Shown one piece after another: positions 3,032 to 55,796 of a stretch of 64,000 bases of DNA. The position numbers and the translations under genes were made by a program. Positions within the stretch are counted from its first letter, which is position 1. Each line of letters starts with the position of its first letter. The notes beneath the pieces are model-generated. The model searched no databases. It saw nothing but the letters and a program-made list of their open reading frames with translations, and was not told where the DNA came from. The stretch comes from an uncultured Candidatus Saccharibacteria bacterium (GTDB lineage Bacteria > Patescibacteriota > Minisyncoccia > UBA6257 > JAKLIH01): positions 11,679 to 75,678 of the forward strand of contig CAYYXO010000002.1 of the NCBI GenBank assembly GCA_964475745.1, given 5' to 3'.

Positions 3032-3580
3032 ATGAAAAATATTAAAAGCTATCTTTTGGAATTGATTGAGGTAGTAGTGATCGCCTTGCTAATAGTTATT
3101 CCTATTAGAATGTATCTAGTCACACCTTTTTTTGTGAGAGGTCAAAGCATGCAACCAAGTTTTCAAGACGGAGATTATTTGATAATTGACAAACTAAGCT
3201 TTAGAATTTCTGATCCCGAGAGAGGCGATATAGTTGTATTTAAGGCCCCTTTAGAGCAAAGTAGTTTTTATATAAAAAGAATTGTTGGTTTGCCAAGCGA
3301 AACAGTGGAAATAAAAGATGGCGGGTTAATAGTTTATAATAGCGACAACACAGAAGGCTGAGAATTAAAAGAATCATATTTGGAAAATCATCCAAATACT
3401 CCTGGTAATATAAAAATAAAACTCCAGGCAGATGAATTTTTTGTTTTAGGAGACAACAGGGAGGCTTCTTATGATTCAAGAGAGTGAGGCAGTTTAAAGG
3501 CGGATAGAATAGTTGGAAAGGTTTGGTTGAGGTTGGCACCCATTAATAAGGTGCAAGCTTTTTCTTTGCCTAAATATTAA
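3032..3580 (+). CDS. lepB: signal peptidase I (182 aa, 2 in-frame TGA)
   Basis: N-terminal TM segment, the catalytic-Ser region RGQSMQPSF, and the GDNREASYDSRE-TGA-G box matching GDNRxxSxDSRxWG, where TGA sits on the conserved Trp. Confidence 0.8.
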
Positions 3581-3596
3581 TAATTAAATTATTATT

Positions 3597-4952
3597 ATGC
3601 CAAAAAAAGGAATTCGTTTTGTTGATATAAAAGAAAAGCTGAACAAGAAAAGTGAGCCTAAAAGAACAACTAAAAAAGTTAAATCTGTTGATTTTAAAGC
3701 GGTAACCAAAACAAAAGATATTTTTGGTAGAAATCTGAAGGTTTGAAAAGATTTAGAAGAACAAGTTGGTGAAGTTTTAAAATTTTATCAATTTGATAGT
3801 ATTGAAACCCCAATGATAGAATACAAGGATTTAATATTTAAGGGTGCTTGAAAAAACCAAGAAGAAAAAAAGAAAAGATTTTTTTGAGTTGAAAAAGCAG
3901 GTGAAAAAAGCATGATGCTTAGGCCGGATTTGATGTCAGGCATTTTAAGAAGTTATTTTGAAAACAAGATGCAAAATCAAAGCCAGCCAGTTAGATTTTT
4001 TTCTTTGGGTCCAGTTTTTATAGATGATGAAGAAAAAAACTTTAGCCAATATAGTCAGCTGACCTTAGAAGCCATTGGTGACAGTAGTGCTATCATTGAG
4101 ATAGAAATAATAAATACTATAAAAAACTTATTTGAGGATTTTGGTTTTGGCAATGTTTCTGTAGAAATAGACAATATTGGATGTGAAAAATGTAAAGAAG
4201 CTTATGAAAAAGAAGTAAAAAAATATTATAAAGATATAAAAACAAAAGTTTGTACTAAATGCAAAAAGATTACCAAGGATAATTTTTTGAAACTGCTTGA
4301 CTGTAATGAAGAGAAATGTAAAGCATTAAGATTTGGCTTGAAAAGTTTTGACGAATTTTGATGTTCAGAATGTAAAAATCATTTTGTAAATATTACAGAA
4401 TATTTAGATTTTTTGAAAATTGAATATTCTTTGGTGGCCAATCTAGACAAATACACTCCGTTTGACAATAAAATTGTTTTTAAAGTAAATGTTTTTGATA
4501 AGGAAAAAAAATATGAAGCTGCTTTTGGCTCAAGGCACGATAATTTGATTAGAAATATAAGCAATAATGGAAAATATGGAGTGGGCTGTAATATTAACTT
4601 AAATTTGCTGTTTAAAGCCTTTAGAGAAAATGCACAAAAAAACAAACCAGAAGAAAAAGAGTTTTCCGTGTTTTTGATACAAATTGGAGATACAGCAAAA
4701 AGAAAAGCTTTTGAAGTGGTAGAAAGCTTAAGAAAAGAAGGAATTATTGCTAAAACCAATTTAAGTAAGGACAGCTTAAGAGCTCAAATATCCATGGCTG
4801 AAAAAGAAAAAGTAAATTGCATATTGATTATTGGCCAAGAGGAAGTTATCAGGGGAGAGGTGATTTTGAGAGATTTTCAATCAGGGTTGCAAGAAAGCGT
4901 TTCTTTTGCTAAACTAATACCAAATTTAATTAAACGAAAAGCAAGCAATTAA
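3597..4952 (+). CDS. histidyl-tRNA synthetase-like class IIa aaRS homologue (about 451 aa), with degenerate motif 2 and a Cys-rich insertion
   Basis: It aligns along its whole length to HisRS. LRPDLMSGILRS matches LRPEGTAGCVRA. Motif 3 AAFGSRHD matches GGGRYD. The C-terminal class IIa anticodon-binding domain is present. In the motif-2 region (FRxERPQxGRxRQFxQ) it instead reads FIDDEEKNFSQYSQL. A CxxC-rich insert reads CEKCKEAY..CTKCKK..CNEEKC. Confidence 0.6.
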
Positions 4953-5207: not shown

Positions 5208-5660
5208 ATGGAACCAGAGTTTTTGTTATACAACAATAGCAAGGAAGAAAGAAGAGTTGTGAATTTTGTTAAAAAAGCAACCAGCAATATTTTAAAAGCA
5301 GAAAGTTTTTTAAAAATTCTAAAAAATAGAAAAATACAAAACTTCTCTTTTTCGATAATTTTAGAAGATAAAAAAACAACAAGGAGGTTAAATAGGGAAT
5401 GGCGTGGTAAAAACAAAATTCCAGATATATTATCTTTTTCTTTGTTAGAAAAAGATTTGTCAAAAACGATTTTGGGAGATATTTTTTTAACCCCAGAAAA
5501 GATAATAAAAGAATCAAAAGAAGGTCTGTTGATGGTTTTTCAGAAATTAATAATACATGGATTGCTTCATTTGCTAGGCTATGATCATGAAAAGGAAAAA
5601 AACTATTTGGAAATGAGCAAAGAAGAGACAAAAATTTTAAAAGAATTAATTAATAATTAA
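5208..5660 (+). CDS. ybeY: rRNA maturation endoribonuclease YbeY
   Basis: The HGLLHLLGYDH zinc-binding signature lies at the C-terminal end of a 150-aa protein. Confidence 0.8.
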   Translation: MEPEFLLYNNSKEERRVVNFVKKATSNILKAESFLKILKNRKIQNFSFSIILEDKKTTRRLNREWRGKNKIPDILSFSLLEKDLSKTILGDIFLTPEKIIKESKEGLLMVFQKLIIHGLLHLLGYDHEKEKNYLEMSKEETKILKELINN

Positions 5661-5671
5661 AATTAATATTT

Positions 5672-6877
5672 ATGAAAAACGCCTTATTGTCATTGGATGT
5701 CGGCACAAATAATATTTATGCGGTTTTGTTTCAATGCGAACAAAAACCCCAAGTGCTGCTTTCTATAAAAAAACCTTCCAATGGCGTGAGAAAGGGCTCA
5801 ATTCAAAATATTAATGAAGTTGTTCAAAATATTGACGGCCTGCTTGATGAAATTACCAGAGCAAGAGGCAAAAATGTTTCTCAAATTGTAATGAGCATTG
5901 GTGGGGCAAATGTTAGTATGACTAAAAGTCGCGGCATTGCTTTGATTTCCGGGAGAAACAATGTTGTTGATAGAGATACAATTGTTCGTTCGCAAAATTC
6001 ATCAAAAGCTTTGTTTTTGCCACCAGGAAGATCAACTTTACATGCGATTCCTCAAAGATATATTGTTGATGGCAATGAATTCGATGTGGAGCCATTAGGT
6101 ATGTCAGGTATGAGATTGGAAGTAGAAAGTGCTATAATAGATACAGATATTATGTCAATTAATAATGTTTCTCAAATAGCAGACAGTACAGGAGCTAGAA
6201 TAACAAATATATTTGCCAATCCTTTAAGCGGAACTTATTCTACTTTGAACAGAAAAGAAAAAGACTTAGGAGTTGTTGGCATTGATTTGGGAGCTAGCAC
6301 CACCACTATTTCGGTTTTTGAAGAAGGAAAACTAGTTTTTATGAAAACTATTCCTGTTGGTTGTGGCAAGATTAGCGACGATATTTGCTTATGACTTCAA
6401 ATAGCTCAAGAAGAGGGAGAAAAAATAAAATTACAATCAGGAGATGCTTATCCTGATAAAGTTGACAGTAAGGAGATATTAAACTTGGGAGATTTTGTTG
6501 CAAATGAAGACAGAAAGTTTAAAAAGAAAGATTTAGCTATGGTTATTTCTGCTAGACTGGAACAAATTTTTGATTTGATAAATAAAGAGCTAAAACAAAT
6601 AAATAAATTTGCTAATTTGCCAGGAGGAGCTGTTTTGTATGGAGGCGGATCTTTGATGCCACACATTATTGAACTAGCTAGAGAATGTTTAAAATTGCCA
6701 GCAAGAGTTGCTTTGCCGGAGGTAGAAGGTCATATTGAAGAAGATCCAGGATTTGCTGTTGCAATGGGTAATATTAAATTTATGTTTGAAGATAAAAATA
6801 TATCTGATAATTGTGTTGATTCAGGTGGAGGCCTTTTGGGCAAGATATTTAAAATGTTTGATAAGTTTAATTTATAA
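5672..6877 (+). CDS. ftsA: cell division protein FtsA (about 401 aa, 1 in-frame TGA)
   Basis: Actin-like ATPase with DVGTNNIYAV at the N-terminus and GGGSLMPHIIELA later. It sits directly upstream of ftsZ. The 5672 and 6485 segments are in the same frame across the TGA at 6395. Confidence 0.85.
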
Positions 6878-6908: not shown

Positions 6909-8153
6909 ATGGCAAACACAAACAATACAAAAGAAGAAGAAGTAGTAAGAAGCTCGAGTGCAACAAGTCCAAGGCCTAAAGTAAAAATTAAAATAGTTGG
7001 TATTGGAGGGGCAGGAGGAAATATTTTGACTAGAATGTATAAAAAGAAAACAGATGGAGTTGATTTTGTTGCTATTAATACTGACACTCAAGGTCTTCAT
7101 TATACTAAAGCAGATCAAAAAATAAATATTGGATTAAATGTAACAAGGGGATTGGGTGCTGGCATGGATCCAGAAATTGGTCAAAAATCTGCCGAAGAGA
7201 GTTCAAAAGATGTTGCTGAAATATTAGGCAAGCCAGATTTGATTTTTATTGCTTGTGGTTTGGGAGGTGGTACTGGCTCAGGAGCCGCTCCAATTGTTGC
7301 TAAATTAGCAAAAGATACTGGTGCTATTGTAGTGGCAGTAGTCACAAAGCCTTTCTTTTTTGAAGGAGCAAAAAGAATGGAGATAGCAAATGAAGCCTGG
7401 GAAAAATTATTTAAAAATGTTGATTCAACTATTACTATAAACAACGATAGGATATTTAATATAATTGAAAAAGATACTCCGGTACTCGATGCTTTTAAGC
7501 AAATTGATGAGATATTAAAACAAGGTGTAAAGGGTATTTCAGATTTGATAAATTATCCTGGTTTAATTAATTTAGATTTTGCTAATTTAAGAACTATTTT
7601 AAAAGATTCAGGAGAGTCAATTATTGGCATTGGTAGGGCTACTGGAAAAGATAGAGCTATAAAAGCAGCCAAGATGGCTATCGAATCTCCTTTATTGGAA
7701 TTATCTATAAAGGGAGCTTCAAGAATTTTATTTAACATCAGCGGTCAAAATGATTTGTCACTTTCTGAAATAACAGAAGCAGCAAGAATTATTACTGACA
7801 ATGCTGCTAAAGATTCAAAAATAATTTTTGGGGCATCTTATGACAATGAATTAAAAAGCGGTGAATTAAAAATAACAGTAATTGCCGGTGGCTTTAATAA
7901 AGAAGATGAAGGAGAAAAGTTGGTTTCTAATGAGCAGTTTGTTTCTTTTTTTAAAAAGGAAAATGATGATTTCTATAATCTAAATCAAAAAATAGACGAT
8001 CAAGAAGAGGAAAATGACAATGAAGATAAAGAAATCAAAGAAGAAGATGTTTTAGAAATGGAAGAAGAAAGCAAAAAGACATTTGATTCAAAAGATGATG
8101 AGGATGATATTGATATTCCACCATTTTTGAGAAAATTTAAAAAACAAAAATAG
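6909..8153 (+). CDS. ftsZ: cell division GTPase FtsZ
   Basis: GGGTGSGAAPIVAKLAK tubulin signature, a T7 loop, an acidic linker and the C-terminal DIPPFLRK FtsA/ZipA-binding peptide. Confidence 0.92.
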   Translation: MANTNNTKEEEVVRSSSATSPRPKVKIKIVGIGGAGGNILTRMYKKKTDGVDFVAINTDTQGLHYTKADQKINIGLNVTRGLGAGMDPEIGQKSAEESSKDVAEILGKPDLIFIACGLGGGTGSGAAPIVAKLAKDTGAIVVAVVTKPFFFEGAKRMEIANEAWEKLFKNVDSTITINNDRIFNIIEKDTPVLDAFKQIDEILKQGVKGISDLINYPGLINLDFANLRTILKDSGESIIGIGRATGKDRAIKAAKMAIESPLLELSIKGASRILFNISGQNDLSLSEITEAARIITDNAAKDSKIIFGASYDNELKSGELKITVIAGGFNKEDEGEKLVSNEQFVSFFKKENDDFYNLNQKIDDQEEENDNEDKEIKEEDVLEMEEESKKTFDSKDDEDDIDIPPFLRKFKKQK

Positions 8154-16853: not shown

Positions 16854-18995
16854 ATGAAAATAAAAATAAATAAGGTTTCTAGCAAGGTAGATAAAAAAGA
16901 AGAAAAAGCTATAAAAACTAATTTAACTAAAAAAGAAGGAAAGCCAAAAAAAGAAGTGGTTTTAAAAAATGAGGAAGCTAAAGACAATGGCTATACAGCT
17001 GAAAGTATTCATGTGCTTGAAGGCTTAGACCCGGTAAGAAGAAGGCCAGGCATGTATATTGGTTCAACTGGTATTTCTGGTTTGCACCATTTGGTTTGAG
17101 AAGTTTTTGACAATGCCATTGATGAAGCTTTGGGTGGTTTTTGTGATAATATAAAAATTGAATTATTAGAAAATAATCGCGTTAGTATTTTTGATAATGG
17201 TAGAGGTATTCCAGTTGATGTTCATAAACAAACAAAAAAATCCGCTTTAGAAACTGTTTTGACGGTTTTGCATGCTGGTGGTAAATTTGGTGGAGGATCT
17301 TATAAAATTTCTGGCGGTTTGCACGGTGTGGGTGTGTCAGTGGTAAATGCTTTGTCTAGCTACTTAAAAGCAGAAGTATACCGAGAAGGTTTTATTTATT
17401 GCCAAGAATATAGCTGTGGCAAGCCGTTAACAGAGGTCAAAAAGACTCAAACAAAAGAAAAAATAATGCATGGCACTCGGATTACTTTTGAGCCAGATGC
17501 AACCATTATGCAAGAAATAAATGTAGATTGAAAAACCATTTTAGATCATGTTAGGGAGCAAGCTTATTTGGTTAGAAAAATAAAAATAGATATTTCGGAT
17601 AAAAGAGACCCTGAAAATCAAAATGACTATGTTTTTTATTTTGAAAATGGTATTGTTGCCTTTCTAAGTTATTTGATAAAAGACCACAATACAAGGTCAA
17701 TACAGAAAAATATCTTTTTTACTGAAGAGACTTCCAATGAAATAGAAGTTGAGATTGCTTTGAGCTATACCACAGAGATTGAAACTTCCGAGTTTGCTTT
17801 TGCCAATAATATTCATACTCCAGAAGGAGGCATGCATTTAACCGGCTTTAGAGCCGCCTTAACAAGAGTTTTAAATGATTATTTAAAAAAGAACTATCCA
17901 AAAGAAAATTTATCACTAACAGGAGAAGATGTAAGGGAAGGCTTGATGGCAATTATTGCTGTAAAATTAAAAGAGCCTCAGTTTGAAGGTCAAACAAAGT
18001 CAAAACTTGGCAATCCAGAAGCAAGAGCTGCTGTTGAGCAAGTTATGTCAAAAGCATTTAGAGATTATTTAGAAAAGAACCCAGATGATGTAAAAAGAAT
18101 TTTAGAAAAATGTTTAGTTTCAGCTAAGGCAAGATCTGCTGCAAAGCTAGCAAGAGAAAATGTTTTGAGGAAAAGTGTTATGGAAAACACCACTTTGCCA
18201 GGAAAATTAGCTGATTGTATTAGTCGTAAAGCAGAAAATTCTGAATTGTTCATTGTTGAGGGCGATAGCGCTGGCGGCTCGGCCAAACAAGGAAGAGACC
18301 GTCATACTCAAGCCATTTTGCCTTTGCGAGGAAAAATTTTAAATGTTGAAAAGGCTAGATTAGATAGAATGATGACTTCAGAAGAAATTAAAGCGGTTAT
18401 TTTAGCTTTGGGAACTTCAATTGCAGAAGATTTTAATTTGAGCAAATTGCGTTATCATAAAGTTGTTTTGATGACTGATGCTGATGTAGACGGTGCTCAT
18501 ATTAGAACATTGCTTTTAACATTGTTTTATAGATATTTCTTAGGAGTAGTAGAAGGTGGATTCTTGTATGTTGCTCAGCCACCTTTGTATCGTATTCAAA
18601 GAGGTAAAGATTTCAGATATGCTTATACTGAAGGAGAGAAAGAAAAAATGATAGATGAGCTATTAAAGATAAAAGAGGCTAAAAAAGAAGCAGGAGCTAA
18701 AAAAGAAGAAAAAAATGAAGAAGAATCTCCAGAAGAAGTAGCAGAAGAAGTTTCAGACGAAATGAAAAAATACAAGGGATTAATAATCCAAAGATATAAA
18801 GGTTTGGGAGAAATGAACCCAGAGCAATTATGAGAAACAACTATGGATCCTAAAACAAGAATATTAAAAAAGATTACTATTGATGATGCTAAAGAAGCAG
18901 ACCGTTTATTTGACATTTTGATGGGAGAGGAAAGAATGCCTCGTAAAAAGTTTATCCAAGTGCATGCTAAAAAAGTTAAAAACTTAGATGTATAA
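16854..18995 (+). CDS. gyrB: DNA gyrase subunit B (about 713 aa, 3 in-frame TGA)
   Basis: [19 protein letters not shown] in the GHKL ATPase domain, the Toprim segment [15 protein letters not shown], and the C-terminal [20 protein letters not shown], where TGA sits on the invariant Trp. No gyrA follows. Confidence 0.92.
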
Positions 18996-22277: not shown

Positions 22278-22529
22278 ATAAAACAGTTAACTAATATTAA
22301 AAGTTCATATTCTTATGAATAAAAGAGATTCAAAAAACAGTTTAAAATTCAGGTGGTAAAAACACAGAGTTTTTCTTTGTGATTATACCGCTTGTCAAAA
22401 GCGGTTTTTTAATTCTCTAATAGTATTGGTTGATCTTTGAAAAAAGAATAAGGGTAAAATGTATTTTCATTGGAAAATTAAATAAAAAACTTAATTGAAG
22501 TTTCTTCAATGCTTTAATTAAGATGAGGA

Positions 22530-25590
<3,061 letters not shown>

Positions 25591-25637: not shown

Positions 25638-25746
25638 GGGCTGGTGATTAATTGTGATATGTCCCACTCGTTTCCATTTCGAACACGATAGTGAAAGTAT
25701 CATGACTCGATAATACTCGCAAGGGGAAAGTAGAGTTTGCCAGCCC
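25638..25746 (+). rRNA. rrf: 5S ribosomal RNA
   Basis: Helix I GGGCTGG/CCAGCCC and the conserved internal CCCACTCGTTTCCATTTCGAACACGATAGT. It sits directly after 23S. Confidence 0.8.
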
Positions 25747-25860: not shown

Positions 25861-27177
25861 ATGTCAAAAAGATTTTTTAAACAAATAGTTGCTTCGTTTT
25901 TATCTTTGCTAGTTTTAGTTATAGTAGGATTTGGTTTTTCAAGATTATTTAAATCCAAGCCAGTTGTTTTTGATCCAAGAAAAGCAGAGATAGCTTCTTT
26001 AAATACTTTCCAATTTGAAAGTAACGCTTTTTGAATGACTCAAGGAGATCGTTATTTTGTTTATAGCCGAGTAACAAATCCAAATGATAATTGAGGAGCA
26101 AAGAGTTTTGACTTTGTTTTTGATTTTGTTCAGAGACAAGAAGAGCTAGAAAGATCCGTTAGAAAGATTTCTGGTAGAGACTATATTTTACCAAGACAGA
26201 CAAAATATATTTTAGCCTTTGTTGAAACTGCCAATCTTTCTTTTGACAGCATAAATTTTCAAGTCAATGACAGAAATGTTGACTGAGACAAACCTATGAG
26301 TGAAGAATTTTTAAACCCAAATTTATTTAGTATAACCAACATAAATCTAGCAACAGGTACAGGTCAAATTATTGCTCCAAGAGAACAAGAAAGCACTTTG
26401 TTTTATGAATTTAAAAAAGATTTAAAAATGGGAGACAAGAACGAAGATGTTTTTAATTTGCAATCTGTTTTAGCTCAAGATAGAGAAGTTTATCCAGAAG
26501 GGCAGATTCATGGAAGTTTTGATTTAGCAACTTACAAGGCAGTCATTAGATTTCAACATAAAAATGGCATCCATCCCCAAACAGGCATAGTGGATTATAA
26601 AACCAGAGAGATTTTAAACCAAATGTTTGGTGGGTCAAGAAGCGAAGCAATCCAAAGAGGCGGCTTTTCCTTTGATAGCAATTTACAATTTGGAGATGCT
26701 GGCTCTGAAGTAAGAGAATTACAAAGAGTTTTAGCACAAGATCCAACAGTTTATCCAGAAGCAAGAATTACCGGCAATTTTGACTATTTATTAAAGCGAG
26801 CTTTAGAGCGTTTTCAAGAAAAACATTCTTTGCGAATAACAGGCGAATTTGACACACCAACAAGAACAAAATTAAATTCAATTTTAACTTCTCAAGATGG
26901 TGCAGCTGAAATAGCTCCTGGCTTGACGGCAGAATTATCCTTTACAGTTTTTAATAATTCCAATACATCTTTTAGAGAAGTTGCTTTGGTTGGCTTTTTA
27001 TGTGATACTCAAAATAAAGTAGTTGCTGTTTCAAGAAATACTATTCAATTAATGTCTCAAAGGAACCAAAATGTTTCTTTTTCTTGAGTTCATAATCTAG
27101 GCGAAAATGTAAAAGTTTGTCCAAATGGGTTGCAAGCCTATACAAATGTTTTCGATGTCAATAATATTATAAGATAA
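25861..27177 (+). CDS. secreted/membrane-anchored protein with two peptidoglycan-binding (PG_binding_1-like) repeats (about 438 aa, several in-frame TGA)
   Basis: N-terminal TM segment and two repeats of LQxVLAQDxxVYPEgxIxGxFD...FQxK..(I/L)xxTG. The 25861 and 26296 segments are in one frame. Confidence 0.55.
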
Positions 27178-27178
27178 A

Positions 27179-28270
27179 ATGATGGTTTATTTAGTTAAGA
27201 ATTGAAAAATATTTGTAAGTGTTTTTTTGTTGACAACATTAAGTTTGCTTATTTTAGCAAGTTTAAGCATGAATCCAGTTGATAATTTAGATGCCTTTTA
27301 TAGGCAGCTAGTTTTTTTTGTGATAGCAACAGTTTTTCTAATATTTTTTGCAAAATTTGATTATAATTTGCTTAAAAATCATTCTTTTTTTATCCTAGGA
27401 AATTATTTTTTATGAAATTTTTCTTTGATATTGTTGTTAGTTTTATCTCCAGTTACAAGAGGTACTAATCGTTGGTTTGATCTAGGTTTTTTCAGTTTAC
27501 AGCCAGTTGAGTTTGTAAAATTAGCTTTGATTTTAGTACTAGTGAAGTTTTTATATCGACGCAATTTAGAAATTTGAAATTTAAAAAATATTATAATCAG
27601 TGGAATATTTTTAGGCATACCTTCGGTTTTGGTTTTGCTGCAACCAGACTTGGGCCCAGTAGTGGCAATGTTTTTAATTTGATTAATTTTACTTTTGGTT
27701 TGTGGGCTGAGGTTCAAGCATTTATTAATTATGATAGTGTCGGTTTCGTTGGTGGCTATAGTTGGTTTTAATTTTATACTTCACGATTATCAAAAAAATC
27801 GTTTAATTTCTTTTTTAAATCCAAACTTAGATCCCATGGGCTTAAATTATAATCAACTTCAGTCAATGATAACCATAGGGAGTGGTCGTTTTTGAGGCAA
27901 AGGTTTGGGTTGAGGAACTCAAACTCAATTACAATATTTGCCAGAAACAAAAACAGATTTTATTTTTGCTGCCATTTCAGAAGAACTGGGGTTTTTAGGT
28001 GGCACCATTATTTTAGGAAGTTTTTTGTTAATGTTTAGTTATTTTGCAGATGCTTTAACTATAGCAAAAAATAATTTTAGCAAGCTTATTATCATTGGTT
28101 TTGGAGTGAAAATATTTTTAGAAACAGTTATAAATATAGGCGTAAATGTTGGGTTTTTGCCTGTTGTGGGCACAGCATTGCCTTTTATAAGTGCTGGAGG
28201 ATCTCATTTAATTGTAGATTTTATTATGGTCGGTATAATTTTAAATATTGTTAATGGACGTAATTACTAA
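27179..28270 (+). CDS. SEDS-family peptidoglycan glycosyltransferase (RodA/FtsW-like; about 363 aa, 5 in-frame TGA)
   Basis: GSGRF-TGA-GKGLG-TGA-GTQTQLQYLPETKTDFIFAAISEELGFLGG is the SEDS signature. The ORF-track segments 27227, 27695 and 27938 are in one frame with the ATG at 27179. Confidence 0.8.
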
Positions 28271-28272
28271 TT

Positions 28273-29274
28273 ATGAAAAAAATAATTTTTGCTTTTGGTT
28301 TGCTTTTTGTTTTTAGTTTCGTTTATTTAAGTATTAATAAAAAAACTACTTTAGAAGAAAAGTATTTCATTGTTGAACCTAGGCAATCTTTTTTATCAAT
28401 AATTGATGATTTGCATAGCGAAGGAATAATTAAAAATAGATATTTTTTCAAAGTTTTTGTTTTTTTGAGAGGAAGTCATAGGGATTTTAAACCAGGCGAA
28501 TATTATTTTAATGGCAGTTATTCAATGAAAAATATTTTAGAAGAGCTAAAAAACAACAAAGGTATATCAGTAACCATAGTTGAAGGCTATAATATTTATC
28601 AAATAGAAAAATTGCTTTTAAAAAATGAAATACTTTCATCAAAAGGAGAGCTAGTAGATTTTCTAGTCAAAGATGTGGATCTGAAAAAATATCCTTTTTT
28701 AAGATATGTTCCACCAGAAAATAATCTAGAAGGATTTCTATATCCTAATACCTATTATTTTTTAAAAAATACTAGCATAGAAAGAGTGGTAGAAAACTTT
28801 TTAGATCATTTTAATGAAAATATTTATATATTAGTTAAAGATAAAATAGCTTTAGACGAGTTTTATTATAAGCTTATAAAGGCTTCTTTCTTGGAAAAAG
28901 AAATATATCATAAAGAAGATATGCCTTTAGCATTAAGCGTAATAAATAACCGTCTTGATATTGGTATGAGGTTGCAAATAGATGCTACTTTATGTTACCC
29001 AAAATTTATGTTACAATATGAAAAAGACCAGGTTTTAAGATGCAATCAGGTTTTAGCAAGCGATAAGCAGATGACATCAGAATATAACACTTATAGATAC
29101 GCTGGCTTAACCAGAACGCCAATATCAAATGTTAATTTTGAAACCTTTAAAACTGTTTTAGAAGAAATTACTTCAGATTATTTCTATTATATAACAACTC
29201 CTCAAGAAAAAGATACTGTTTTTGGTAAAACATTAGAAGAGCATAATCGCAATATACAAAAATATTTAAGATAA
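28273..29274 (+). CDS. mltG: endolytic murein transglycosylase MltG (YceG-like)
   Basis: N-terminal TM segment and a YceG domain with GYNIYQIEKLL and PENNLEGFLYPNTYYF, matching LEGYLFPDTY. Confidence 0.75.
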   Translation: MKKIIFAFGLLFVFSFVYLSINKKTTLEEKYFIVEPRQSFLSIIDDLHSEGIIKNRYFFKVFVFLRGSHRDFKPGEYYFNGSYSMKNILEELKNNKGISVTIVEGYNIYQIEKLLLKNEILSSKGELVDFLVKDVDLKKYPFLRYVPPENNLEGFLYPNTYYFLKNTSIERVVENFLDHFNENIYILVKDKIALDEFYYKLIKASFLEKEIYHKEDMPLALSVINNRLDIGMRLQIDATLCYPKFMLQYEKDQVLRCNQVLASDKQMTSEYNTYRYAGLTRTPISNVNFETFKTVLEEITSDYFYYITTPQEKDTVFGKTLEEHNRNIQKYLR

Positions 29275-29289
29275 TTTTATAAAATAATA

Positions 29290-29913
29290 ATGGAAAACAA
29301 AAACTTTATAATTTCAAAAATGAGTAATTTCCTAAGCAAACTACCAAGCATTGGCCCTAGGCAAGCGAAGCGTTTAGCTTACTACATAGCCAGATTAGGA
29401 GCTAATAATGTAGAAGAAATTGCCAAGCTATTTTGAGATATAGCAAACAATGTTGATGTTTGCGAAGATTGTTTTTCTGTTTTTGAAAGAGAATTCAAAG
29501 ATCAGAAAAAGTGCGCTATTTGCTTAAGCACATTAAGAAAAAAGAAATTTATTTGTGTTGTTGAAAAAGACACCGATCTCATTTCTGTTGAAAAAACAGG
29601 GAAGTATAAAGGAGTTTATTTTGTTTTAGGTGGGCTGTTAAATTCTTTTGAAACAAATATTGATGACAAAGTAAAAATTAAAGAATTAGTTGAGAAGATA
29701 AAACATTCATTAGAAAATAAAGAGCCAATTGAAGAAATTGTTTTGGCTTTAAATCTAACAGCAGAAGGTTGCTTGACTGCAGGAGAAATCAAAAAGCAAC
29801 TGCAACCCTATAATATTAAAATTACTCAGTTGGGAGTTGGTTTGCCTATTGGCAGCGAGGTTGAGTTTGCTGATACCGAAACATTGATAGAATCCTTTAA
29901 GAATAGGGGGTAA
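29290..29913 (+). CDS. recR: recombination protein RecR (about 207 aa, 1 in-frame TGA)
   Basis: HhH segment LPSIGPRQAKRLAYYIA, a C4 zinc finger (CEDC...CAIC) and a Toprim segment (ICVVEKDTD). Confidence 0.85.
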
Positions 29914-30005: not shown

Positions 30006-30152
30006 ATAAAAGCAATACTTCAGTAGGAAGTGTTCTTTTAAACTTGAAAATTTAGATATACCACAACTAACAAATTCAAAGTTTTTTAGTTGCTCTAAAG
30101 GTTTATTTTTTTTGAATAAATTTTGTATATTTTATATACAGTTGTTTTTTTT

Positions 30153-31672
<1,520 letters not shown>

Positions 31673-31799
31673 TTTTAGGAATCTTTGTTTAATTTGATTC
31701 GTCAAATTAAACTATTCCAAGGTCGTCCCGAATATTTTTTAAATATTTTGGAACTTGTTAAACTAAACCTGCTGGAGCAACTAAAAAGTTTTGAATCAA

Positions 31800-31837: not shown

Positions 31838-31949
31838 GAAACGGTGTGTTGGCTTGCAAAATGACATCTTTTGTGGTAGAGTATCTATGTTTGAAATTTG
31901 CTGTTTAAAAGATGAAAAGGCCGGCGGGCATACGCAGGAGGAAATTTTT

Positions 31950-32426
31950 ATGAGTATTATTGATGATAGTTTGGTTCAGGAAGCGTTAGATTTATCTGGT
32001 CCGACAATTGAAACCATACTGAAAAACCCCAAGTCAACTTGGGGGCCAAAGTATGTCGAAGTTTTTATTATTGAGCGAGACGATGTTAGCGCATATACTG
32101 CCGTTATAGGAGAGAAAGAACCCTGGGATCCTTCCTGGGGAGAAGAGCTCGACTATGATTTTTTGTTTGTAGCAGAACAAAAGGCCAATGCTTCTCTTAG
32201 AGAAAAGGCGGACACGTCTTTTCTAATTGAGCAATCCCCATGGTTGCTTGAAGAAGGAGAATTTTTGTATCCCGGAGGCGTCTATTACGGCGGGGTTGCC
32301 GTTGGTGTTTCTGGAGCAAAAGGTATTGTCGATGAAGGAATAGCAAAAATCCTGATCAGTGCTATTGTTATGCTCGCAAAGCAGAAAACGCAAGAAAAGA
32401 TAAGAAATGATGATTACCAAGTGTAA
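31950..32426 (+). CDS. GlcG/DUF336 (heme-binding-like) family protein (about 158 aa), foreign-looking
   Basis: PGGVYYGGVAVGVSGAKGIVDEGIA matches the DUF336 GG..GAIGVSG...D..A signature. A canonical SD (CAGGAGGAAA) lies 7 nt before the ATG. All four Trp codons are TGG, it contains no TGA, and it is locally GC-richer. Confidence 0.55.
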   Translation: MSIIDDSLVQEALDLSGPTIETILKNPKSTWGPKYVEVFIIERDDVSAYTAVIGEKEPWDPSWGEELDYDFLFVAEQKANASLREKADTSFLIEQSPWLLEEGEFLYPGGVYYGGVAVGVSGAKGIVDEGIAKILISAIVMLAKQKTQEKIRNDDYQV

Positions 32427-32438
32427 CATCGAAAAAGC

Positions 32439-32475
32439 AAAAGGAACTTGGCGCGACGCCAAGTTCCTTTTTTGA
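32439..32475 (+). terminator. rho-independent terminator
   Basis: Hairpin aaaaggaacttggcg-cgac-gccaagttcctttttt. Confidence 0.65.
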
Positions 32476-32574
32476 TTTTGCAGCATATGTGCCAATATCG
32501 CCACCAGATATGGACAAAATAAGATTTTTATGATATAATATAAATAGAAAAATAGATTGAATTAGGAGGTAAAA

Positions 32575-32997
32575 ATGTATGAACTTTTTGAAAAATTATT
32601 AGAGGCCACCAAAAAGGGTCTTGTAAAATGGAAAAAAGTTGGAGAAAAAGTCGTTGTTCCAGGTTATACAGAAGGGTTTCAGCAATATGAAGCTATCATA
32701 GAAGAAAAACGAATAAAAACTTTTGTTCAGCTTAAGGCCGTTGTTAAAAAAAAGGGGTTATTTAATAAAAGAAGCGTCGAAGAGGCTAGTTGGGTGTTTG
32801 GTGTTTTTCTCAATGATTTTGCTCTTATAACCTCAAACGAAGAGGCTTTGAGGAGCGATATTATGGTAACGAGCTCCTTTCATGAGCTCAAAATGGTAGA
32901 TTTCTTTTATTCGCTAGAGGAGGCAGTTCGAGAAAAAGATCTACTCGAGTCCATTGACGCAGATCTTACTGAATTATTGTCCTTGTCGATTAAGTAA
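32575..32997 (+). CDS. hypothetical protein (140 aa), foreign-looking
   Basis: A perfect SD (TAGGAGGT) lies 8 nt upstream and an extended -10 (TGATATAAT) further upstream. It contains no TGA, and Trp is TGG. Confidence 0.4.
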   Translation: MYELFEKLLEATKKGLVKWKKVGEKVVVPGYTEGFQQYEAIIEEKRIKTFVQLKAVVKKKGLFNKRSVEEASWVFGVFLNDFALITSNEEALRSDIMVTSSFHELKMVDFFYSLEEAVREKDLLESIDADLTELLSLSIK

Positions 32998-33024
32998 ATA
33001 ATCACAAAAACCCTACAACGAAGC

Positions 33025-33062
33025 GTAGGTAGCTCAATTAATCTTAATTGGGCTTTTTTATT
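33025..33062 (+). terminator. rho-independent terminator
   Basis: Hairpin agctcaattaa-tc-ttaattgggct followed by TTTTT. Confidence 0.5.
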
Positions 33063-33246
33063 TCCCTTTTTTGATTTAGAACTTGTTTTTTGTTTTAAAA
33101 TTTAGTATATTTTATTCAAAAGAAAGTTTCGATAAAAGCTTAAGCGATGGCGGCAGTAGTAGCGGAAAATAATAAAATCAAAGTTGTTTTGAAAAAGGAG
33201 GGGCAATTGCATGTCCCTCTATTAAATCAAAATAAAATTTATAATC

Positions 33247-34446
33247 ATGAAGTGGAAAATTATAAAAAATGATAATCCATATAAAGAATATTCTGATTTT
33301 GAATATTTGTGGGTTGATATTTTTTTAAGTAAAGGCTTATTATATAGACAAGATTTAGTTAAAATTTTAAAGCATTTTGACATAAATTTTGTTGAAAAAA
33401 ATTGAGAAGAAAATATTTCTTTAGGAGAAATGGGCACGGTGCTGCATGGAGATGTTAAAAAAGATGTGTTGTTGCCGTTTCTACAAAATTATATACATCA
33501 AAATTACCCAAAGATATTTGGCTTTGAAGAGGCAAGTAAAATATATAATGCTTTGATAAAAATAGACAGTCAGTTAAATATTATAAAACTTTGGTTTGCT
33601 TTTGAATGCGATAAATACGATAAAAATTTAAAAAGTTTTTTGGAAGAAAAACTCCTTGACTTGACAAAGGGAGCTAGAGTTAAAGATAATGCTGAAATTG
33701 GGTTAAGCGAAGAAAAAGATAATTATTGTCAATGATGTGTGGTTGATATATTAACTCAAATGTATAGATTATCTTTTATAAACGAAGACATCAAAAAAAA
33801 TTATTTTGAAGAAAATTATGATGAATTTCGTTATCAATGATTGATAATTATTTTATGCAGAGAATTATTGCCAAGAAAAGATATGTTGGCATTTTTAAAG
33901 CATTATGACATGCGGTTTTTTGGAATAAATTGAAAAAATAGAATTAAATTAGAAGAAATGGGTTGGGTAATTTTGCATGATGTTGAAGAAGATGATCTTT
34001 TTGATTTTTTGTCAAATTATTTAAAAGAAAAATATCCAAAACTTTTTTCTTTTGAGGAAGCATGTAAAATTTTTGACGCATTGTTTTATTTAAAAAATGA
34101 AATTCAAATTATGGAAGTGTGGTTAAATATGGCTGATGAATCTCCGTATGTTTCTTACATGAGAGAGCAACTCGATTATTTAAAAGAGCAAAGAGAAGGG
34201 GGGGTTTTTGACGAATCGCCAAGCATGGAAGAAAAAAGAAAAGAAACAGGTCTTTTTAGAAGAACAGCGCAAGATGTTATTTTGGCTTTGTATGAATTAG
34301 CCATGAAAAACTATTTTAAAAAGAAACAAAAGGCAAGTCCTAGTCATCTTTATGGCAATGAAAGCTCTAAAGGCCATGATGACTCGGCAGCGGTTAAATG
34401 CATGCAAGAATATCTATCAAGAAAAAAAGCTGAAAATGACTTTTAA
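33247..34446 (+). CDS. hypothetical protein with an internal tandem duplication of a roughly 130-aa domain (about 399 aa, 6 in-frame TGA)
   Basis: One frame runs from the ATG at 33247 through ORF segments 33430 and 33958. Unit 1 reads ...EEMGTVLHGDVKKDVLLPFLQNYIHQNYPKIFGFEEASKIYNALIKIDSQLNIIKLWF... Unit 2 reads ...EEMGWVILHDVEEDDLFDFLSNYLKEKYPKLFSFEEACKIFDALFYLKNEIQIMEVWL... The units are clearly homologous. A basic, Ser-rich C-terminal tail follows. Confidence 0.5.
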
Positions 34447-34606
34447 TGCTCAGTATGATTATTTATTGATAAAGTAAATATTCACAGAGTAAACAATCGA
34501 CAAGCAAATGACTTTTTCTAAATTAACCCTGTAAATAATAGCTTTTTTGGAGGGGGTTGATTTTTAAACTTATTTTGACTATACTTTATTTAGTTAAAAA
34601 AGAAGT

Positions 34607-35317
34607 ATGGCAACAACAAAAAGGTATTTTTACTCAAATGAGTTTTATCATATTATTTTAAGAGGTATTGATGGAAAAACTTTGTTTTTAAACGACCAAG
34701 ACTATTTTAGAATGATCAATGGCATGTTTGTTTTTAATGATAAAGGGTTAATAGGTTCTTCTTTTCGACACAAAGGATGTCCAAATGATAGATTTGAAAG
34801 AAAAAGAAAAGGGCCTTTGGTAAATATACATGCTTTTTGCTTAATGCCAAATCACATTCATTTTTTGTTGGAACAAAAGGTTGAAGGGGGTCTGTCAAAA
34901 TTTATGTTAAAAATAGGAGCCGGCTATGCGGCTTTTTTTAATAATAAATATAAAAGAAAAGGCCATTTGTTTCAAAGCAGATTTAAGTCGGTTTTAATAA
35001 AAGATGATGATCAGTTGGCAGTAATTTTTTCTTATATCCATACAAATCCGGTTTCTATAATAGAACCTAATTGAAAGGAAAAGGGTATAAAAGATTTTAA
35101 AAAAGTTAGAAATTTTATTGAAACCTATAGGTGATCAAGTTATGCTGATTATTTAGGTAACAAAAATTTTCCAAATTTAACAAAAAGAAATTTTATGCTT
35201 CAAGATCAAAATCAACGCGCTTGAAGAAATTTCGTAGAAGACTGGCTAAAGTATAAGGCAGAGTTGTTTGAGCGTTTTTTTAAAGACAAAGGCAAAGATA
35301 GTTATTTATTGGAGTAA
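34607..35317 (+). CDS. IS200/IS605-family Y1 (HuH) transposase-like protein, RAYT/COG1943-like (about 236 aa, 3 in-frame TGA)
   Basis: HuH motif LMPNHIHFLL, the catalytic-Tyr region FSYIHTNPV, and C-terminal YR-TGA-SSYADY matching the WSSY box. It uses TGA for Trp, so it is host-adapted. No tnpB is adjacent. Confidence 0.7.
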
Positions 35318-35346
35318 AAATCTGAAAAAATTAAAAGCTAAAGAAA

Positions 35347-35375
35347 GAAAGGACGACCCCAGGGGTCGTCCTTTT
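35347..35375 (+). terminator. rho-independent terminator after the transposase-like gene
   Basis: Hairpin aggacgacccc-a-ggggtcgtcct followed by TTTTT. Confidence 0.65.
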
Positions 35376-35539
35376 TGAAAAAAGCAGCACTGTTTTGTCC
35401 ATTATAGCACTGGCGATGCTCATTGGGTGATTTTTCCAAAAAAGCTTCGCCTCTTTGTAAAGTTCACTATCGGTTATATCCATTTCGTCATCTTTTTTAA
35501 TGTTCTTTCGATAAAGTTGATTATATTATAGCCTTTTTT

Positions 35540-35790
35540 ATTAAATATGTCAACACCATGCTTAGCGAGTTAAATTTCAAAGCCCATCATGGTGTTGGCC
35601 ATCATTTCAGCTTAATCAATTACAACGTAGCAAGGCAACGTTGTATATTCTCCTTTGATTAATCAGGCCTAACGCTACCTGGTAACGGAGGGAGGGAGTG
35701 GTTTGTGGGGATATTTGGTGGTTGTTTTATATTACGTAGCGGGAGGGGATCTTGGTGTTATTTTAAATTATGCAATGCGAGTGGTTGTAT
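35540..35790. other. GC-richer structured non-coding element with inverted repeats and G-tracts
   Basis: Inverted repeats caacaccatg...catggtgttg (35551..35596) and tacaacgt...acgttgta (about 35618..35645). A G-tract cluster follows: GGAGGGAGGGAGTGG..GTGGGG...GCGGGAGGGG (35690..35745). It contains no ORF. Confidence 0.35.
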
Positions 35791-35841
35791 AAATGATATA
35801 AATATGCTAAAATTGATTTAAATAGCTTAATTGTATTATTT

Positions 35842-36783
35842 ATGAATGATATATCAAAAAAAAAGGAAGAGTTTCTTTTAAAAATTATGAGTTCAACAAA
35901 CGCTGATAAATTTAAAAGATATTTAGGAAGCCCATTGCGATATGCAGGAGGTAAAACATTGGCTGTCGGGTATATTGTAAAATTGTTGCCTAATAAAATA
36001 GATAGAGTTGTTTCGCCTTTTTTAGGGGGGGCTTCAGTTGAAATTGCCTTGGCAAAAGAGCTGGGACTTGAAGTTATCGGGTATGACATTTTTGACCTAC
36101 TGATAAATTATTGGAAGAACCAAATTAATAATCCTGAGCAGCTGTATCAGAATTTAAGAATATTGGCAAACACAAAAAATAAATATCAAGAGGTAAAAAA
36201 TATTTTAAAAAATATATGAAATAAAAATGATGGCCTGTTGAAAAATGATTTTTCTAGTTTAGAATTGGCAACTTATTATTATTTTAATCATAACTTAAGC
36301 TATGGACCTGGATTTTTGGGATGGATGTCGTCAAATTATTTAGATAATAAAAAATATGATTCAATGTTGAAAAAAGTTAAGAATTTTAAGGTTTGTAATT
36401 TTCATGTTCGTACATCAAGTTTTGAAGAAGCAATCCCGATGCATAAAAAAGATTTTTTATATTTGGACCCGCCTTATTATTTAGACGGAGACAGTAAAAT
36501 GTTTAAAGGGATATATCCAATGAGAAATTTTCCAATACATCACAATGGCTTCAACCACGAATTATTATTTAATTTGTTAAAAAATCATGATGGCGGTTTT
36601 ATTTTGTCATATAATGATTGCGAATGGGTAAGAAAAAAATATAAAAATTTTAAAATTATAGATATTGAATGGCAATATACAATGGGACAAGGGGAGACAA
36701 GAATAGGTAAAAACAGATTGTCAAGAAATTATGACAATAACAATGTAAAAAAATCTCATGAATTATTAATTATAAATTATTAA
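35842..36783 (+). CDS. Dam-family (D12-class) N6-adenine DNA methyltransferase (about 313 aa, 1 in-frame TGA)
   Basis: N-terminal SAM motif LRYAGGKTL (a Dam motif I-like FxGxG/YAGGK) and the catalytic motif IV LYLDPPYY (DPPY). The 35842 and 36238 segments are in one frame across the TGA at 36217. Confidence 0.8.
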
Positions 36784-36798
36784 ATATAAAATAGCGAT

Positions 36799-37398
36799 AT
36801 GTTAATTAAAAAAGTAAAAACAGCTTTTAAAATAGCAGACGTTGAGCTTGTAAAGAATACAACAAAATTAAAATTTAATTATTTGTCCACCATAAAAGAT
36901 GAAAATAATAAAATTTTACCAAAGGACATTCTTACTAAAAATTACGCAAGAGTTTATCTAATTGTTGTTGACGGAGAGATAAAAAAAATAGGGGCGTCGC
37001 AAGATAAGGGGGGAATGAAGGGGACGTTGAGTATTTATAAAGATGGTGGCGTAAAAGGAAGGCCAAGCATAAGAAGTTTCGGCATCTGGTATTTTTTGTA
37101 TCGTACTGCGATGCAAGGTAAAAAAATTGAGTTTTATATGATATATCATGACAATTTCAATTTTGAGATTAAGGGTTTGTTACAAACATATCAAACAACA
37201 TTAGCGAGCATAAGCTGTAAGCTTATTGAATATTATTGTGTTAAAGATTATTTGTCGATGGAAAACAATCATTATCCAGACTGGAATGTTCAAGAACAAG
37301 CAATGGATTGGCCAGAAGAGGTTAAAAGAGAACATTCTAGAATAACAGCAGGTAGTTTAAATAATAAATCTAAGAGAAAAAAAATGAAAATGGCATAA
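36799..37398 (+). CDS. hypothetical protein, possible PD-(D/E)xK nuclease partner of the MTase (199 aa)
   Basis: It lies directly downstream of the Dam-family MTase. LPKD-(15 aa)-VVDGEIKK fits a PD...(D/E)xK spacing. No other family was recognised. Confidence 0.35.
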   Translation: MLIKKVKTAFKIADVELVKNTTKLKFNYLSTIKDENNKILPKDILTKNYARVYLIVVDGEIKKIGASQDKGGMKGTLSIYKDGGVKGRPSIRSFGIWYFLYRTAMQGKKIEFYMIYHDNFNFEIKGLLQTYQTTLASISCKLIEYYCVKDYLSMENNHYPDWNVQEQAMDWPEEVKREHSRITAGSLNNKSKRKKMKMA

Positions 37399-37412
37399 CA
37401 ATAAATGATTTA

Positions 37413-37754
37413 ATGCCGTTTCTTAAAAGCGACCAAAATCCAAATGGATCTATAATTAGTTTGTCGGATTTGTATCTGTCTATTTGTTATGGCATGAGAT
37501 ATGAACCAGCAAGTGGTTATTGACTTTCTAACGCTGATTTTTATAGTTTTACCCCTGATACAGATAAAATAGGCAGTCAAATAAGGTATTATCTTCAAGT
37601 TCCAGATATTGAAGAAATTATGGAACCAATAGAGCCTGAAGATGAAGGCAATGAAGAGGAGGAGGAAGGGGATGGCGAAGAAGGGGATTTTGAGGAAGAA
37701 TTGTTGTACGAAGAAGGTGGCCTTGAGGAAGAAGAAAATGAAGAGACTGAATAA
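37413..37754 (+). CDS. small protein with an extremely acidic C-terminal tail (about 113 aa, 1 in-frame TGA)
   Basis: MPFLKSDQNPNGS...GYWLSNADFYSF...IEPEDEGNEEEEEGDGEEGDFEEELLYEEGGLEEEENEETE. About 35 of the last 45 residues are D or E. It is not in the ORF track because of its internal TGA. Confidence 0.4.
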
Positions 37755-37778
37755 AATAGTAAAAAAGATGAATTGTGA

Positions 37779-37812
37779 AAAACACTGGCTTTAAAAGCCA
37801 GTGTTTTTTTGT
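37779..37812 (+). terminator. rho-independent terminator
   Basis: Hairpin aaacactggctt-taaa-agccagtgttt followed by TTTTT. Confidence 0.65.
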
Positions 37813-37862
37813 TTTCTTTGAAATTATGCTATAATAGGAGCATATAAAGTTAATATTACATT

Positions 37863-38830
37863 ATGGACAATTGTCAAATAAAATTTTGTCAAAACAATAA
37901 GCTGATTAATAAGTTTTATTTTCTGGTTAATTTAGCTAAGGTGGCTAAGTGAAAAGATAAATCCATGGGGATTGATTTTTTTTCTGGCTATAAAATAAAT
38001 AAAATTTCTAAAAAGGAAATTGAAAAATTTAAGAAAATTTTCAAAAAAGTAGAATATTGAGATATAGAAAGAGTTTTTTACCAAGCTAACACTGAAGCAG
38101 GCGCTTTAAAAGGATTGTCAAAATATCTTGCAAAAAGTGATATATTGGAATTGAAAAAAATATTTAATTTTTTTGAAAAAGACTTTCTAACTCTTTATAA
38201 TAGTATTGATAAAAAACATAGCAAAGAATTAAAGGATCTATGAAAAAAGACTGAATACCAGAAGATTTTAAAAAAGCTGATTTATTTATTTGGAGACAAA
38301 AAGAAAAAATATAATCTAAAGGTAAAGATAGTATTTGAAAAAAACTTTGATGGTGTTTTTAGAGGCACAGTTTATGACGAAAATATTGTTTTGGAGGTGG
38401 CTGACTTAAAAGATAGATTTGATTTGTTGGAAAATATTATTTTTGTTTTGCTACATGAAATTACTCATGTATTTGTAAAAAGTAATGAGCTTATAAAATT
38501 TACAATAAATAAACTCGGCATTACTCGAAATACTGTTAATGTGATTAAAAAATATAATATTGATTTTGATAATTTTGCAGAAGAAATTTTGATCAGAATG
38601 TTTCTTACAAGAGGGTATTTTCGTGATAAAAACAAAGAACGTTTTTTAAATAATAAAAAAATAACTTGAAAACATGCAATAAATCAAAATCAAATACAAT
38701 TGCATTGTTTTAGTATGATGCTATATAAAAGTATGCATAAAGATGTTGAAAAATATGTTAAAAAAAACAAGAAAATTGACGATGAATTTTTATCAAAAAT
38801 GATAAAAATAATTAAAAGCAAGGTTAAATA
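37863..38830 (+). CDS. hypothetical HExxH-motif (putative zinc metallopeptidase-like) protein (about 322 aa, 3 in-frame TGA)
   Basis: LLHEITHVFV is an HExxH motif in a Lys-rich protein. It has an ImmA/IrrE- or SprT-like flavour, but the family is not identified. Confidence 0.45.
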
Positions 38831-38958
38831 AAAAGAGCGGAGAAGGCAATTTTTTTGGTTAAATTAGGCTAGTAAATGCTAGCTTTTTGAGGTATTGCAT
38901 AAAATTAAAATTGTTGATACATTGAGGTTGGCTTAATAAAAATTTTAAAAAATGTATC

Positions 38959-54113: not shown

Positions 54114-54127
54114 ACTAAGACAAAAGT

Positions 54128-55267: not shown

Positions 55268-55796
55268 AAAACTTTTGCTATACACTTGTTGTGCTTCATG
55301 CGCTTTGCCAATATTGGATTATTTAAAAAATCAAAATTTTGACATTACTCTTTATTTTTCAAATTCAAATATTTTGGATAAAGATGAATTTGATAAGAGG
55401 CTATCAGATGTTGAAAAAATTGCTAAAATTTATAATGTTGAAGTTGTGATTGATGAATATAATCATCAAGAATGACTCGATTGCTTGAGTAAAAATTTAC
55501 CAAAAGATTTAAAAGAATATCAAGAAAATTCTGAAAGATGTGTTGCATGCTTAAATTTTAGAACTCAAAGGTTGGCAAAATATCTTCTGAGTAATGTTTT
55601 TGATGTTGTTTCCAGTACTTTTTTGACTAGTTTGCATAAAGATACGAAAAAAGTCGAAAACTGATTAAAAGAATTTGGAGGGGAAGTTTTGTTTTTTGAT
55701 ATTGATAAAAAAGATTTTTATAAGAAGGGAATTGATTTGTCCAAAAAGCATGATATTTATAGACAAAAGTTTTGTGGTTGTGAATTTTCGAGATAA
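55260..55796 (+). CDS. queH: epoxyqueuosine reductase QueH (DUF208; about 178 aa, 2 in-frame TGA)
   Basis: LLLYTCCASCALP matches the QueH LLLHSCCAPCS box, and C-terminal YRQKFCGCEFS matches YRQ.YCGC. It overlaps the tgt stop by 8 nt. Confidence 0.7.

Follow-up and report, generated by a model that had tools for sequence, protein, structure and literature searches.

The gene at positions 3597-4952 of the window, a 64,000-nt stretch of contig CAYYXO010000002.1 from an uncultured Candidatus Saccharibacteria bacterium, occupies the place in which related bacteria of the candidate phyla radiation (CPR) carry hisS, the gene for histidyl-tRNA synthetase (HisRS), and its product has lost the catalytic Arg residues of that enzyme. 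The explanation that we prefer, at about even confidence, is a catalytically dead positional orthologue of hisS that likely acts as a non-catalytic tRNA-His-binding pseudo-synthetase. Few enzymes are as indispensable or as conservative as the aminoacyl-tRNA synthetases, and hisS is in wide use as a single-copy phylogenetic marker. The gene and the parts of its product are listed here (P numbers, sequence records; L numbers, related loci).

3597..4952, plus strand: HisRS-derived gene, ATG at 3597, 451 codons, TAA at 4950-4952, read with UGA as Trp (Pfam, TIGR00442; record P0053)
3597..3707, plus strand: Lys-rich N-terminal extension, residues 1-37, with the invariant motif KKGIRFVDIKxKLN; low-confidence or disordered in the AlphaFold (AF2) model
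3708..4178, plus strand: N-terminal half of the class II core, residues 38-194, with LRPDLMS against LRPEGT of HisRS; mean family identity 0.63
4017..4061, plus strand: degenerate motif 2, FIDDEEKNFSQYSQL, residues 141-155, from HMMER alignment to 1qe0, 4e51 and 1adj
4179..4421, plus strand: HisRS insertion domain, residues 195-275, with a cluster of eight Cys and one His that is invariant in the family
4422..4631, plus strand: remnants of HisA, HisB and motif 3, residues 276-345 (LVANLDKY, GSRHD, GVGCNINLNLL); the least conserved part
4665..4949, plus strand: class IIa anticodon-binding domain, residues 357-451 (PF03129); the most conserved part

The window protein is, by its sequence, clearly derived from HisRS. 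It matched the Pfam families tRNA-synt_His (PF13393, 9e-15) and HGTP_anticodon (PF03129, 1.8e-13), and its closest solved relatives were all HisRS, the best being the S. aureus enzyme (1qe0, 2.4e-48). The AF2 model had a predicted local distance difference test (pLDDT) score of 72.8, and all 50 of the 50 PDB matches listed by Foldseek were HisRS. These results bear out the first-pass annotation of the window, which had called the protein a HisRS homologue. The best NCBIfam match was likewise hisS (TIGR00442), with 229.6 bits, short of the 286.75-bit cutoff. On the same model the canonical CPR HisRS P0012 and P0013 scored 426 and 422 bits, and P0010, P0015 and P0218 scored 281, 152 and 135. Other proteins of the window scored above their NCBIfam cutoffs (PheS, 276 against 237 bits; GatB, 518 against 315), so the degeneration is specific to the gene at the hisS locus. 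The KKGIRFVDIKxKLN N-terminus was limited to the window family and P0010/P0070, that is, to the clade reading UGA as Trp.

Catalytic residues were compared through residue-level HMMER alignments to solved HisRS. The E. coli HisRS residue numbers applied to the equivalents are those of the HisRS literature.

RPE loop: canonical LRPEGT, window LRPDLMS; E83 to D, T85 to M
Motif 2: canonical FRYERKQKGRYRQFNQF, window FIDDE-EK-NFSQYSQL; R113 to I142, R121 to N148, R123 to S150
HisA: canonical LVRGLDYY, window LVANLDKY; R259 lost
HisB: canonical GGRYD, window GSRHD; kept
Motif 3: canonical GIGFALSIERL, window GVGCNINLNLL; R311 to L337

The motif-2 Arg residues are therefore absent, as the first-pass annotation had stated, and the degenerate motif 2 was common to nine orthologue clusters (59-79% identity). 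The same annotation had read the motif-3 Arg as retained. In our alignment GIGFALSIERLL lies opposite GVGCNINLNLLF, the Arg position is Leu337, and the Arg that is kept belongs to HisB. It had further held that all Arg and Gln residues contacting ATP and histidine were replaced, which does not hold for all of the Gln: Q151 and Q154, the equivalents of the two motif-2 Gln, are invariant in the window family, as is E158, the equivalent of E131. The loss of the HisA Arg had escaped it. The motif-2 loop is two residues shorter than that of HisRS. In HisB, G311, R313, H314 and D315 are invariant in the family; the HisA motif is not conserved across it. The window protein has other residues in place of T85 and Y263; it keeps Y264 as Y286, a position that varies among family members. 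The former Arg positions of the window protein hold I, N, S, A and L, with no basic residue among them. Across the family the motif-2 loop varies, and so do these positions, which are mostly hydrophobic; the one in motif 3 is L, V, Y, A, S or T. An active site kept by selection would be expected to show the contrary, and from these residues the window protein looks catalytically inactive.

The gene is under strong purifying selection and is functional. The ratio of nonsynonymous to synonymous substitution rates (dN/dS) was 0.06 in the least saturated pair and 0.02-0.05 for the anticodon-binding domain. Between the window and L005-L008, identity was 61-63% for the HisRS-derived protein, 61-65% for GatB, 71% for PheS and 44-46% for YbeY, which indicates that the HisRS-derived protein evolves at about the rate of GatB. 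Mean pairwise identities by region (core, residues 38-194; insertion domain; HisA to motif 3; anticodon-binding domain) were as follows.

Canonical against canonical: core 0.42, insertion domain 0.41, HisA to motif 3 0.49, anticodon-binding domain 0.37
Degenerate against degenerate: core 0.26, insertion domain 0.34, HisA to motif 3 0.30, anticodon-binding domain 0.42
Within the window family: core 0.63, insertion domain 0.65, HisA to motif 3 0.50, anticodon-binding domain 0.84
Window against canonical: core 0.26, insertion domain 0.32, HisA to motif 3 0.20, anticodon-binding domain 0.36

Conservation is inverted relative to true HisRS, the anticodon-binding domain being the most and the active-site half the least conserved. 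In a ten-sequence alignment of the family, the anticodon-binding domain showed 85% identity and 64% invariant columns, and the segment from HisA to motif 3 an identity of 0.50-0.54 with 20% invariant columns. The anticodon-binding domain of the window protein is as near to the canonical domains (0.36) as those are to each other (0.37), whereas its active-site half is far more diverged from the canonical sequences than these are among themselves.

The neighbours of the gene are those of hisS in related genomes.

3032..3580, plus strand: lepB, signal peptidase I (PF10502); conserved upstream neighbour of CPR hisS, also in L009-L016
4979-5203, plus strand: rpsU-like gene; conserved downstream neighbour
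5208-5660, plus strand: ybeY; conserved downstream neighbour
5672-6877, plus strand: ftsA; conserved downstream neighbour
6909-8153: ftsZ, after ftsA

The packing is operon-like, with lepB ending 16 nt upstream and rpsU beginning 26 nt downstream of the HisRS-derived gene (X in the gene orders given here), and the order in the window family is NusG-L11-GatB-LepB-X-S21-YbeY-FtsA-FtsZ. Canonical HisRS genes were found in the same lepB-X-rpsU/ybeY-ftsA(-ftsZ) slot: P0011 (L002), P0013 (L010), P0012 (L015, a Liptonbacteria metagenome-assembled genome) and P0059 (L016). Two further degenerate types were found there as well, namely P0010 (36% identity, from a UGA=Trp genome) and the P0015/P0218 type (27-29% identity, from standard-code genomes, one of them on an 825-kb JGI contig). 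Every homologue looked up, canonical or degenerate, occupied the lepB-X-rpsU/ybeY-ftsA slot. Because equivalent synteny surrounds canonical hisS in relatives, the window gene is the positional orthologue of hisS and not a stray paralogue. The earlier suggestion of an inactive paralogue is supported as to inactivity, the Arg equivalents being lost, and fails as to paralogy, the gene standing in the conserved hisS slot.

The degenerate loci were not set apart by any conserved new neighbour. A HIT-family gene (PF01230) overlaps the 3′ end of canonical hisS in L010 (7388-7738) and L015 (11320-11727); it was seen neither in the degenerate loci examined nor in the canonical loci L002 and L016, and shows no clear association. 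An Rfam search for T-box or other leader RNAs returned only rRNA and tRNA matches. There was no tRNA-His gene near the locus, the only tRNA genes there being tRNA-Gln, tRNA-Leu and tRNA-Trp(CCA).

The spread of the Arg loss was followed with a profile of degenerate sequences run against 1.84 billion cluster representatives; the best 150 matches were aligned with references, giving 163 sequences in total. When alignment columns were read strictly, the four Arg were present in 53 of the 163 relatives, none or one in 96 and an intermediate number in 14. Allowing a shift of up to two residues, all four were present in 57 and none or one in 66. The loss is thus close to all-or-none, the pattern expected once catalysis is dispensable. 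Some relatives, such as P0061 and P0073, have Lys instead of Arg. In a neighbour-joining tree, a crude distance tree that is indicative only, a large P0015-type block and the group formed by the window family and P0010 stood apart, canonical sequences lying in between. Since canonical sequences separate the degenerate blocks, the tree implies at least two independent degenerations, and the degenerate HisRS would not form one clade.

The second degenerate family is much more diverse and comes from standard-code Paceibacterota (L011/L012, L013/L014; P0015-P0019, P0205-P0242). Its members have about 400-436 amino acids, a recorded match to PF03129 only, and LHVEEK where HisRS has LRPEGT, and they lie in the lepB-X-ybeY-ftsA slot; the gene of the P0218 type is on the 825,130-bp JGI contig 3300072492|Ga0642625_00004. 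Annotation of this group varies: the NCBI name given to one of them is 'His/Gly/Thr/Pro-type tRNA ligase C-terminal domain-containing protein', and JGI lists such proteins as histidyl-tRNA synthetase. The P0015/P0218 type resembles the window protein in its slot, its lost Arg, and its kept anticodon-binding domain and HisB. It differs in its identity of 27-29%, its standard code, the lack of KKGIRFVDIK, the LHVEEK motif and its separate block in the tree.

The first-pass annotation had also described a Cys-rich insertion. The cluster lies in the insertion domain (C196, C199, C219, C222, C236, C241, C256, C259 and H262), and it is not peculiar to the window protein: all eight Cys are present in the catalytic relatives P0011 and P0012, and 53-86% of the 57 catalytically intact relatives have Cys or His at the positions in question. 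As intact relatives carry Cys or His at equivalent positions, the alignment marks the cluster as an ancestral feature of the insertion domain and no novel insertion.

Translation with the standard code splits 3597-4952 into fragments at four in-frame stops, all of them TGA.

3744..3746, plus strand: TGA for Trp50; TGG in some orthologues at codon 50
3849-3851, plus strand: TGA for W85; orthologues with Leu, Phe or Met
3885-3887, plus strand: TGA for W97; orthologues with Leu, Phe or Met
4359-4361, plus strand: TGA for W255; TGG in some orthologues at codon 255

In the window TGA is a sense codon for Trp (code 4). This follows from the GyrB gene (16854-18995), in which TGA positions align with W, F and Y of E. 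coli GyrB, from residue 50, which aligns with Trp in the S. aureus and B. thailandensis HisRS, and from codons 50 and 255, at which TGA and TGG swap between orthologues. When only TAA and TAG were counted as stops, the long open reading frame coverage of the window rose from 34.7 to 59 kb. The reading of UGA as Gly (code 25, Gracilibacteria/Absconditabacteria) was rejected on the GyrB alignment, the alternation with TGG at the same codons, and the in-frame codon counts over the whole window (TGA 118, TGG 61). A 2026 preprint (10.64898/2026.05.24.727570) describes UGA-to-Trp recoding in the GTDB family JAKLIH01 and the genus GCA-2747955 of the class Minisyncoccia and presents these cases as the first in Patescibacteriota. 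One related locus is on JAKLIH010000002.1, and the window evidently stems from JAKLIH01 or a lineage near it. In related UGA=Trp genomes nusG has a tRNA-Trp(CCA) gene upstream of it (L005, 4271-4342; L006, 3993-4065; L008, 5192-5263); tRNA scans, which covered the window and a set of loci, showed no tRNA-Trp(UCA). Read with UGA as Trp, the 451-amino-acid product exactly matches the recorded sequence P0053. The gene is present in six GTDB species-representative genomes, and more than ten intact orthologues carry the degenerate motif.

Our preferred explanation is that the aminoacylation chemistry was lost and the protein was kept. The HisRS fold, the Cys/His-rich insertion domain and the anticodon-binding domain, the last very strongly conserved, are retained, and a conserved Lys-rich N-terminal tail has been gained. 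Judging from domain conservation, the protein would still bind tRNA-His by means of its anticodon-binding domain and basic tail, and formation of histidyl-adenylate would be impossible. It may then serve as a non-catalytic tRNA-His-binding factor that holds, presents, protects or senses the tRNA, to name examples, and tRNA-His would be charged by something encoded outside the window, presumably another HisRS.

A QueA-Tgt-QueH queuosine cluster was observed at 53052-55796 of the window (QueH by Pfam; QueA and Tgt by sequence motifs only). The base that queuosine modification affects is G34 in tRNA-His, Asn, Asp and Tyr, the anticodon position that an anticodon-binding domain of the HisRS type would meet.

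Set beside canonical HisRS (TIGR00442; 1qe0, 1adj, 4rdx), the window protein has the same order of class II core, Cys-cluster insertion domain and class IIa anticodon-binding domain, the same predicted fold and the CPR hisS slot, and it shares the HisB G-x-R-x-D, the E131 equivalent and the two motif-2 Gln. In contrast, it lacks the equivalents of R113, R121, R123, R259 and R311, has the shorter motif-2 loop, scores below the cutoff, shows the inverted domain conservation and carries the extra Lys-rich N-terminus.

Several points weigh against a dead enzyme. Part of the substrate pocket (E158, Q151, Q154 and R313/D315 of HisB) stays invariant. No second HisRS was found by hmmsearch in six-frame translations of the 64-kb window or of L001-L012, which amount to a minority of a genome, and there was one such gene per locus. 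For a dead enzyme kept in one slot across streamlined CPR lineages, an essential role is the simplest account, and the obvious one is that of HisRS itself. The single line of evidence for tRNA binding is domain conservation, and the AF2 model is of moderate quality.

These points lead to the reading that the protein is still the sole HisRS of the cell, working without the canonical class II Arg, either by way of a rearranged active site or with very low efficiency; the first-pass annotation had named a highly unusual catalytic solution as its second option. Its position as the orthologue of hisS, the strong purifying selection on it, the lack of another HisRS in the window and in L001-L012, the kept E158, Q151, Q154 and HisB R-x-D, and the Lys-for-Arg forms P0061 and P0073 among relatives all favour this reading. 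Against it, compensating basic residues are missing at the Arg positions, and conservation within the family is lowest there and in the motif-2 loop, HisA and motif 3. We know of no class II synthetase that works without the Arg of motifs 2 and 3. On balance we consider it unlikely. A broader version, in which Minisyncoccia genomes of this kind hold no other HisRS and His-tRNA(His) is made by an Arg-less class II enzyme, by a partner to which the window protein supplies only the tRNA-binding subunit, or is obtained from the host, is in our judgement improbable to a similar degree. If it were true, each of these three routes would be without precedent in a free-standing bacterial genome of 0.5-0.8 Mb.

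A role that is both non-catalytic and independent of tRNA-His, such as that of a regulator of, or scaffold for, the ribosome and cell-division genes transcribed with it or of a partner subunit of another enzyme, would suit the tight operon-like run between lepB and rpsU and the conservation of the insertion domain and the N-terminal tail. However, the best conserved part is the anticodon-binding domain, no more diverged than canonical ones are among themselves, and the degenerate loci share no specific new neighbour. This role appears distinctly unlikely.

The classic case of a bacterial HisRS-like protein that lacks catalytic residues is HisZ, and the first-pass annotation had raised a HisZ-like regulator, that is, a regulatory subunit of ATP phosphoribosyltransferase. 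The window protein does give weak matches to HisZ models (1.6e-20) and to PDB 3od1 (3e-6, N-terminal part only). However, it scored 73.5 bits on TIGR00443 against a cutoff of 271.65, lower than its 229.6 bits on hisS, and was far under the cutoffs of other HisZ models, on which canonical CPR HisRS scored higher (141-147 bits). Neither hisG nor other his-biosynthesis genes were seen among the about 20 window proteins scanned with Pfam, among the others, which were judged by eye, or in the Pfam listings of related loci. With poor model scores, no his genes seen among the proteins and loci covered and a hisS-orthologous locus, a HisZ role is without support, and we regard it as very improbable. 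CPR bacteria generally lack amino-acid biosynthesis. The likeness to HisZ (TIGR00443; 3od1) is that of a bacterial HisRS homologue without catalytic residues; the window protein differs in keeping a strongly conserved anticodon-binding domain and the hisS locus, and in having arisen inside a CPR HisRS clade rather than in the HisZ family.

The chance of a decaying pseudogene or of an assembly, frameshift or stop-codon artefact, to which the four in-frame stops of the standard code might point, is practically negligible: a pseudogene is excluded by the dN/dS of 0.06 and the intact orthologues, a frameshift or sequencing error, the check proposed in the first-pass annotation, by an independent ENA contig identical to the window over 5357 nt and by the motif 2 that stays degenerate in more than ten orthologues, and a stop-codon artefact by the window-wide sense TGA and the alternation of TGA with TGG in orthologues.

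Elsewhere in the window, the rRNA genes are not linked and follow an unusual order: 23S at 22522-25582, 5S at 25640-25745, four protein genes at 25861-29913 and 16S at 30151-31676. The proteins between 5S and 16S include PG_binding_1 and YceG by Pfam, and SEDS-like and RecR-like proteins by eye only. Just downstream of 16S, at 31887-38831, there is a block of open reading frames mostly without family matches, with an IS200-like Y1 transposase at 34607-35317 and a gene like Dam-type DNA methyltransferases at 35770-36783 (by eye only). The block may be a mobile or foreign island. A predicted secreted protein of 728 amino acids that is extremely Cys-rich is encoded at 50774-52960.

HisRS-derived pseudo-enzymes are already known in HisZ and in the HisRS-like domain of GCN2, a module without synthetase activity that binds tRNA. 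The likeness to GCN2 is by analogy only, as both are HisRS-derived and without synthetase activity; the GCN2 module is part of a eukaryotic kinase, whereas the window protein is free-standing, has no kinase or effector domain and is of independent origin. Degenerate orthologues in the hisS slot of CPR bacteria appear to be new, and full-text literature searches found no description of them. In at least two independent CPR groups, on the evidence of the distance tree, the chemistry would have been lost at the ancestral hisS slot, yet strong selection is maintained. HisRS-model scores below the cutoff affect completeness estimates and metabolic reconstructions of genomes with a degenerate hisS. 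The implication would be either a new and widespread tRNA-binding pseudo-synthetase with some role in translation or a gap in the tRNA-His charging of ultra-small symbionts.

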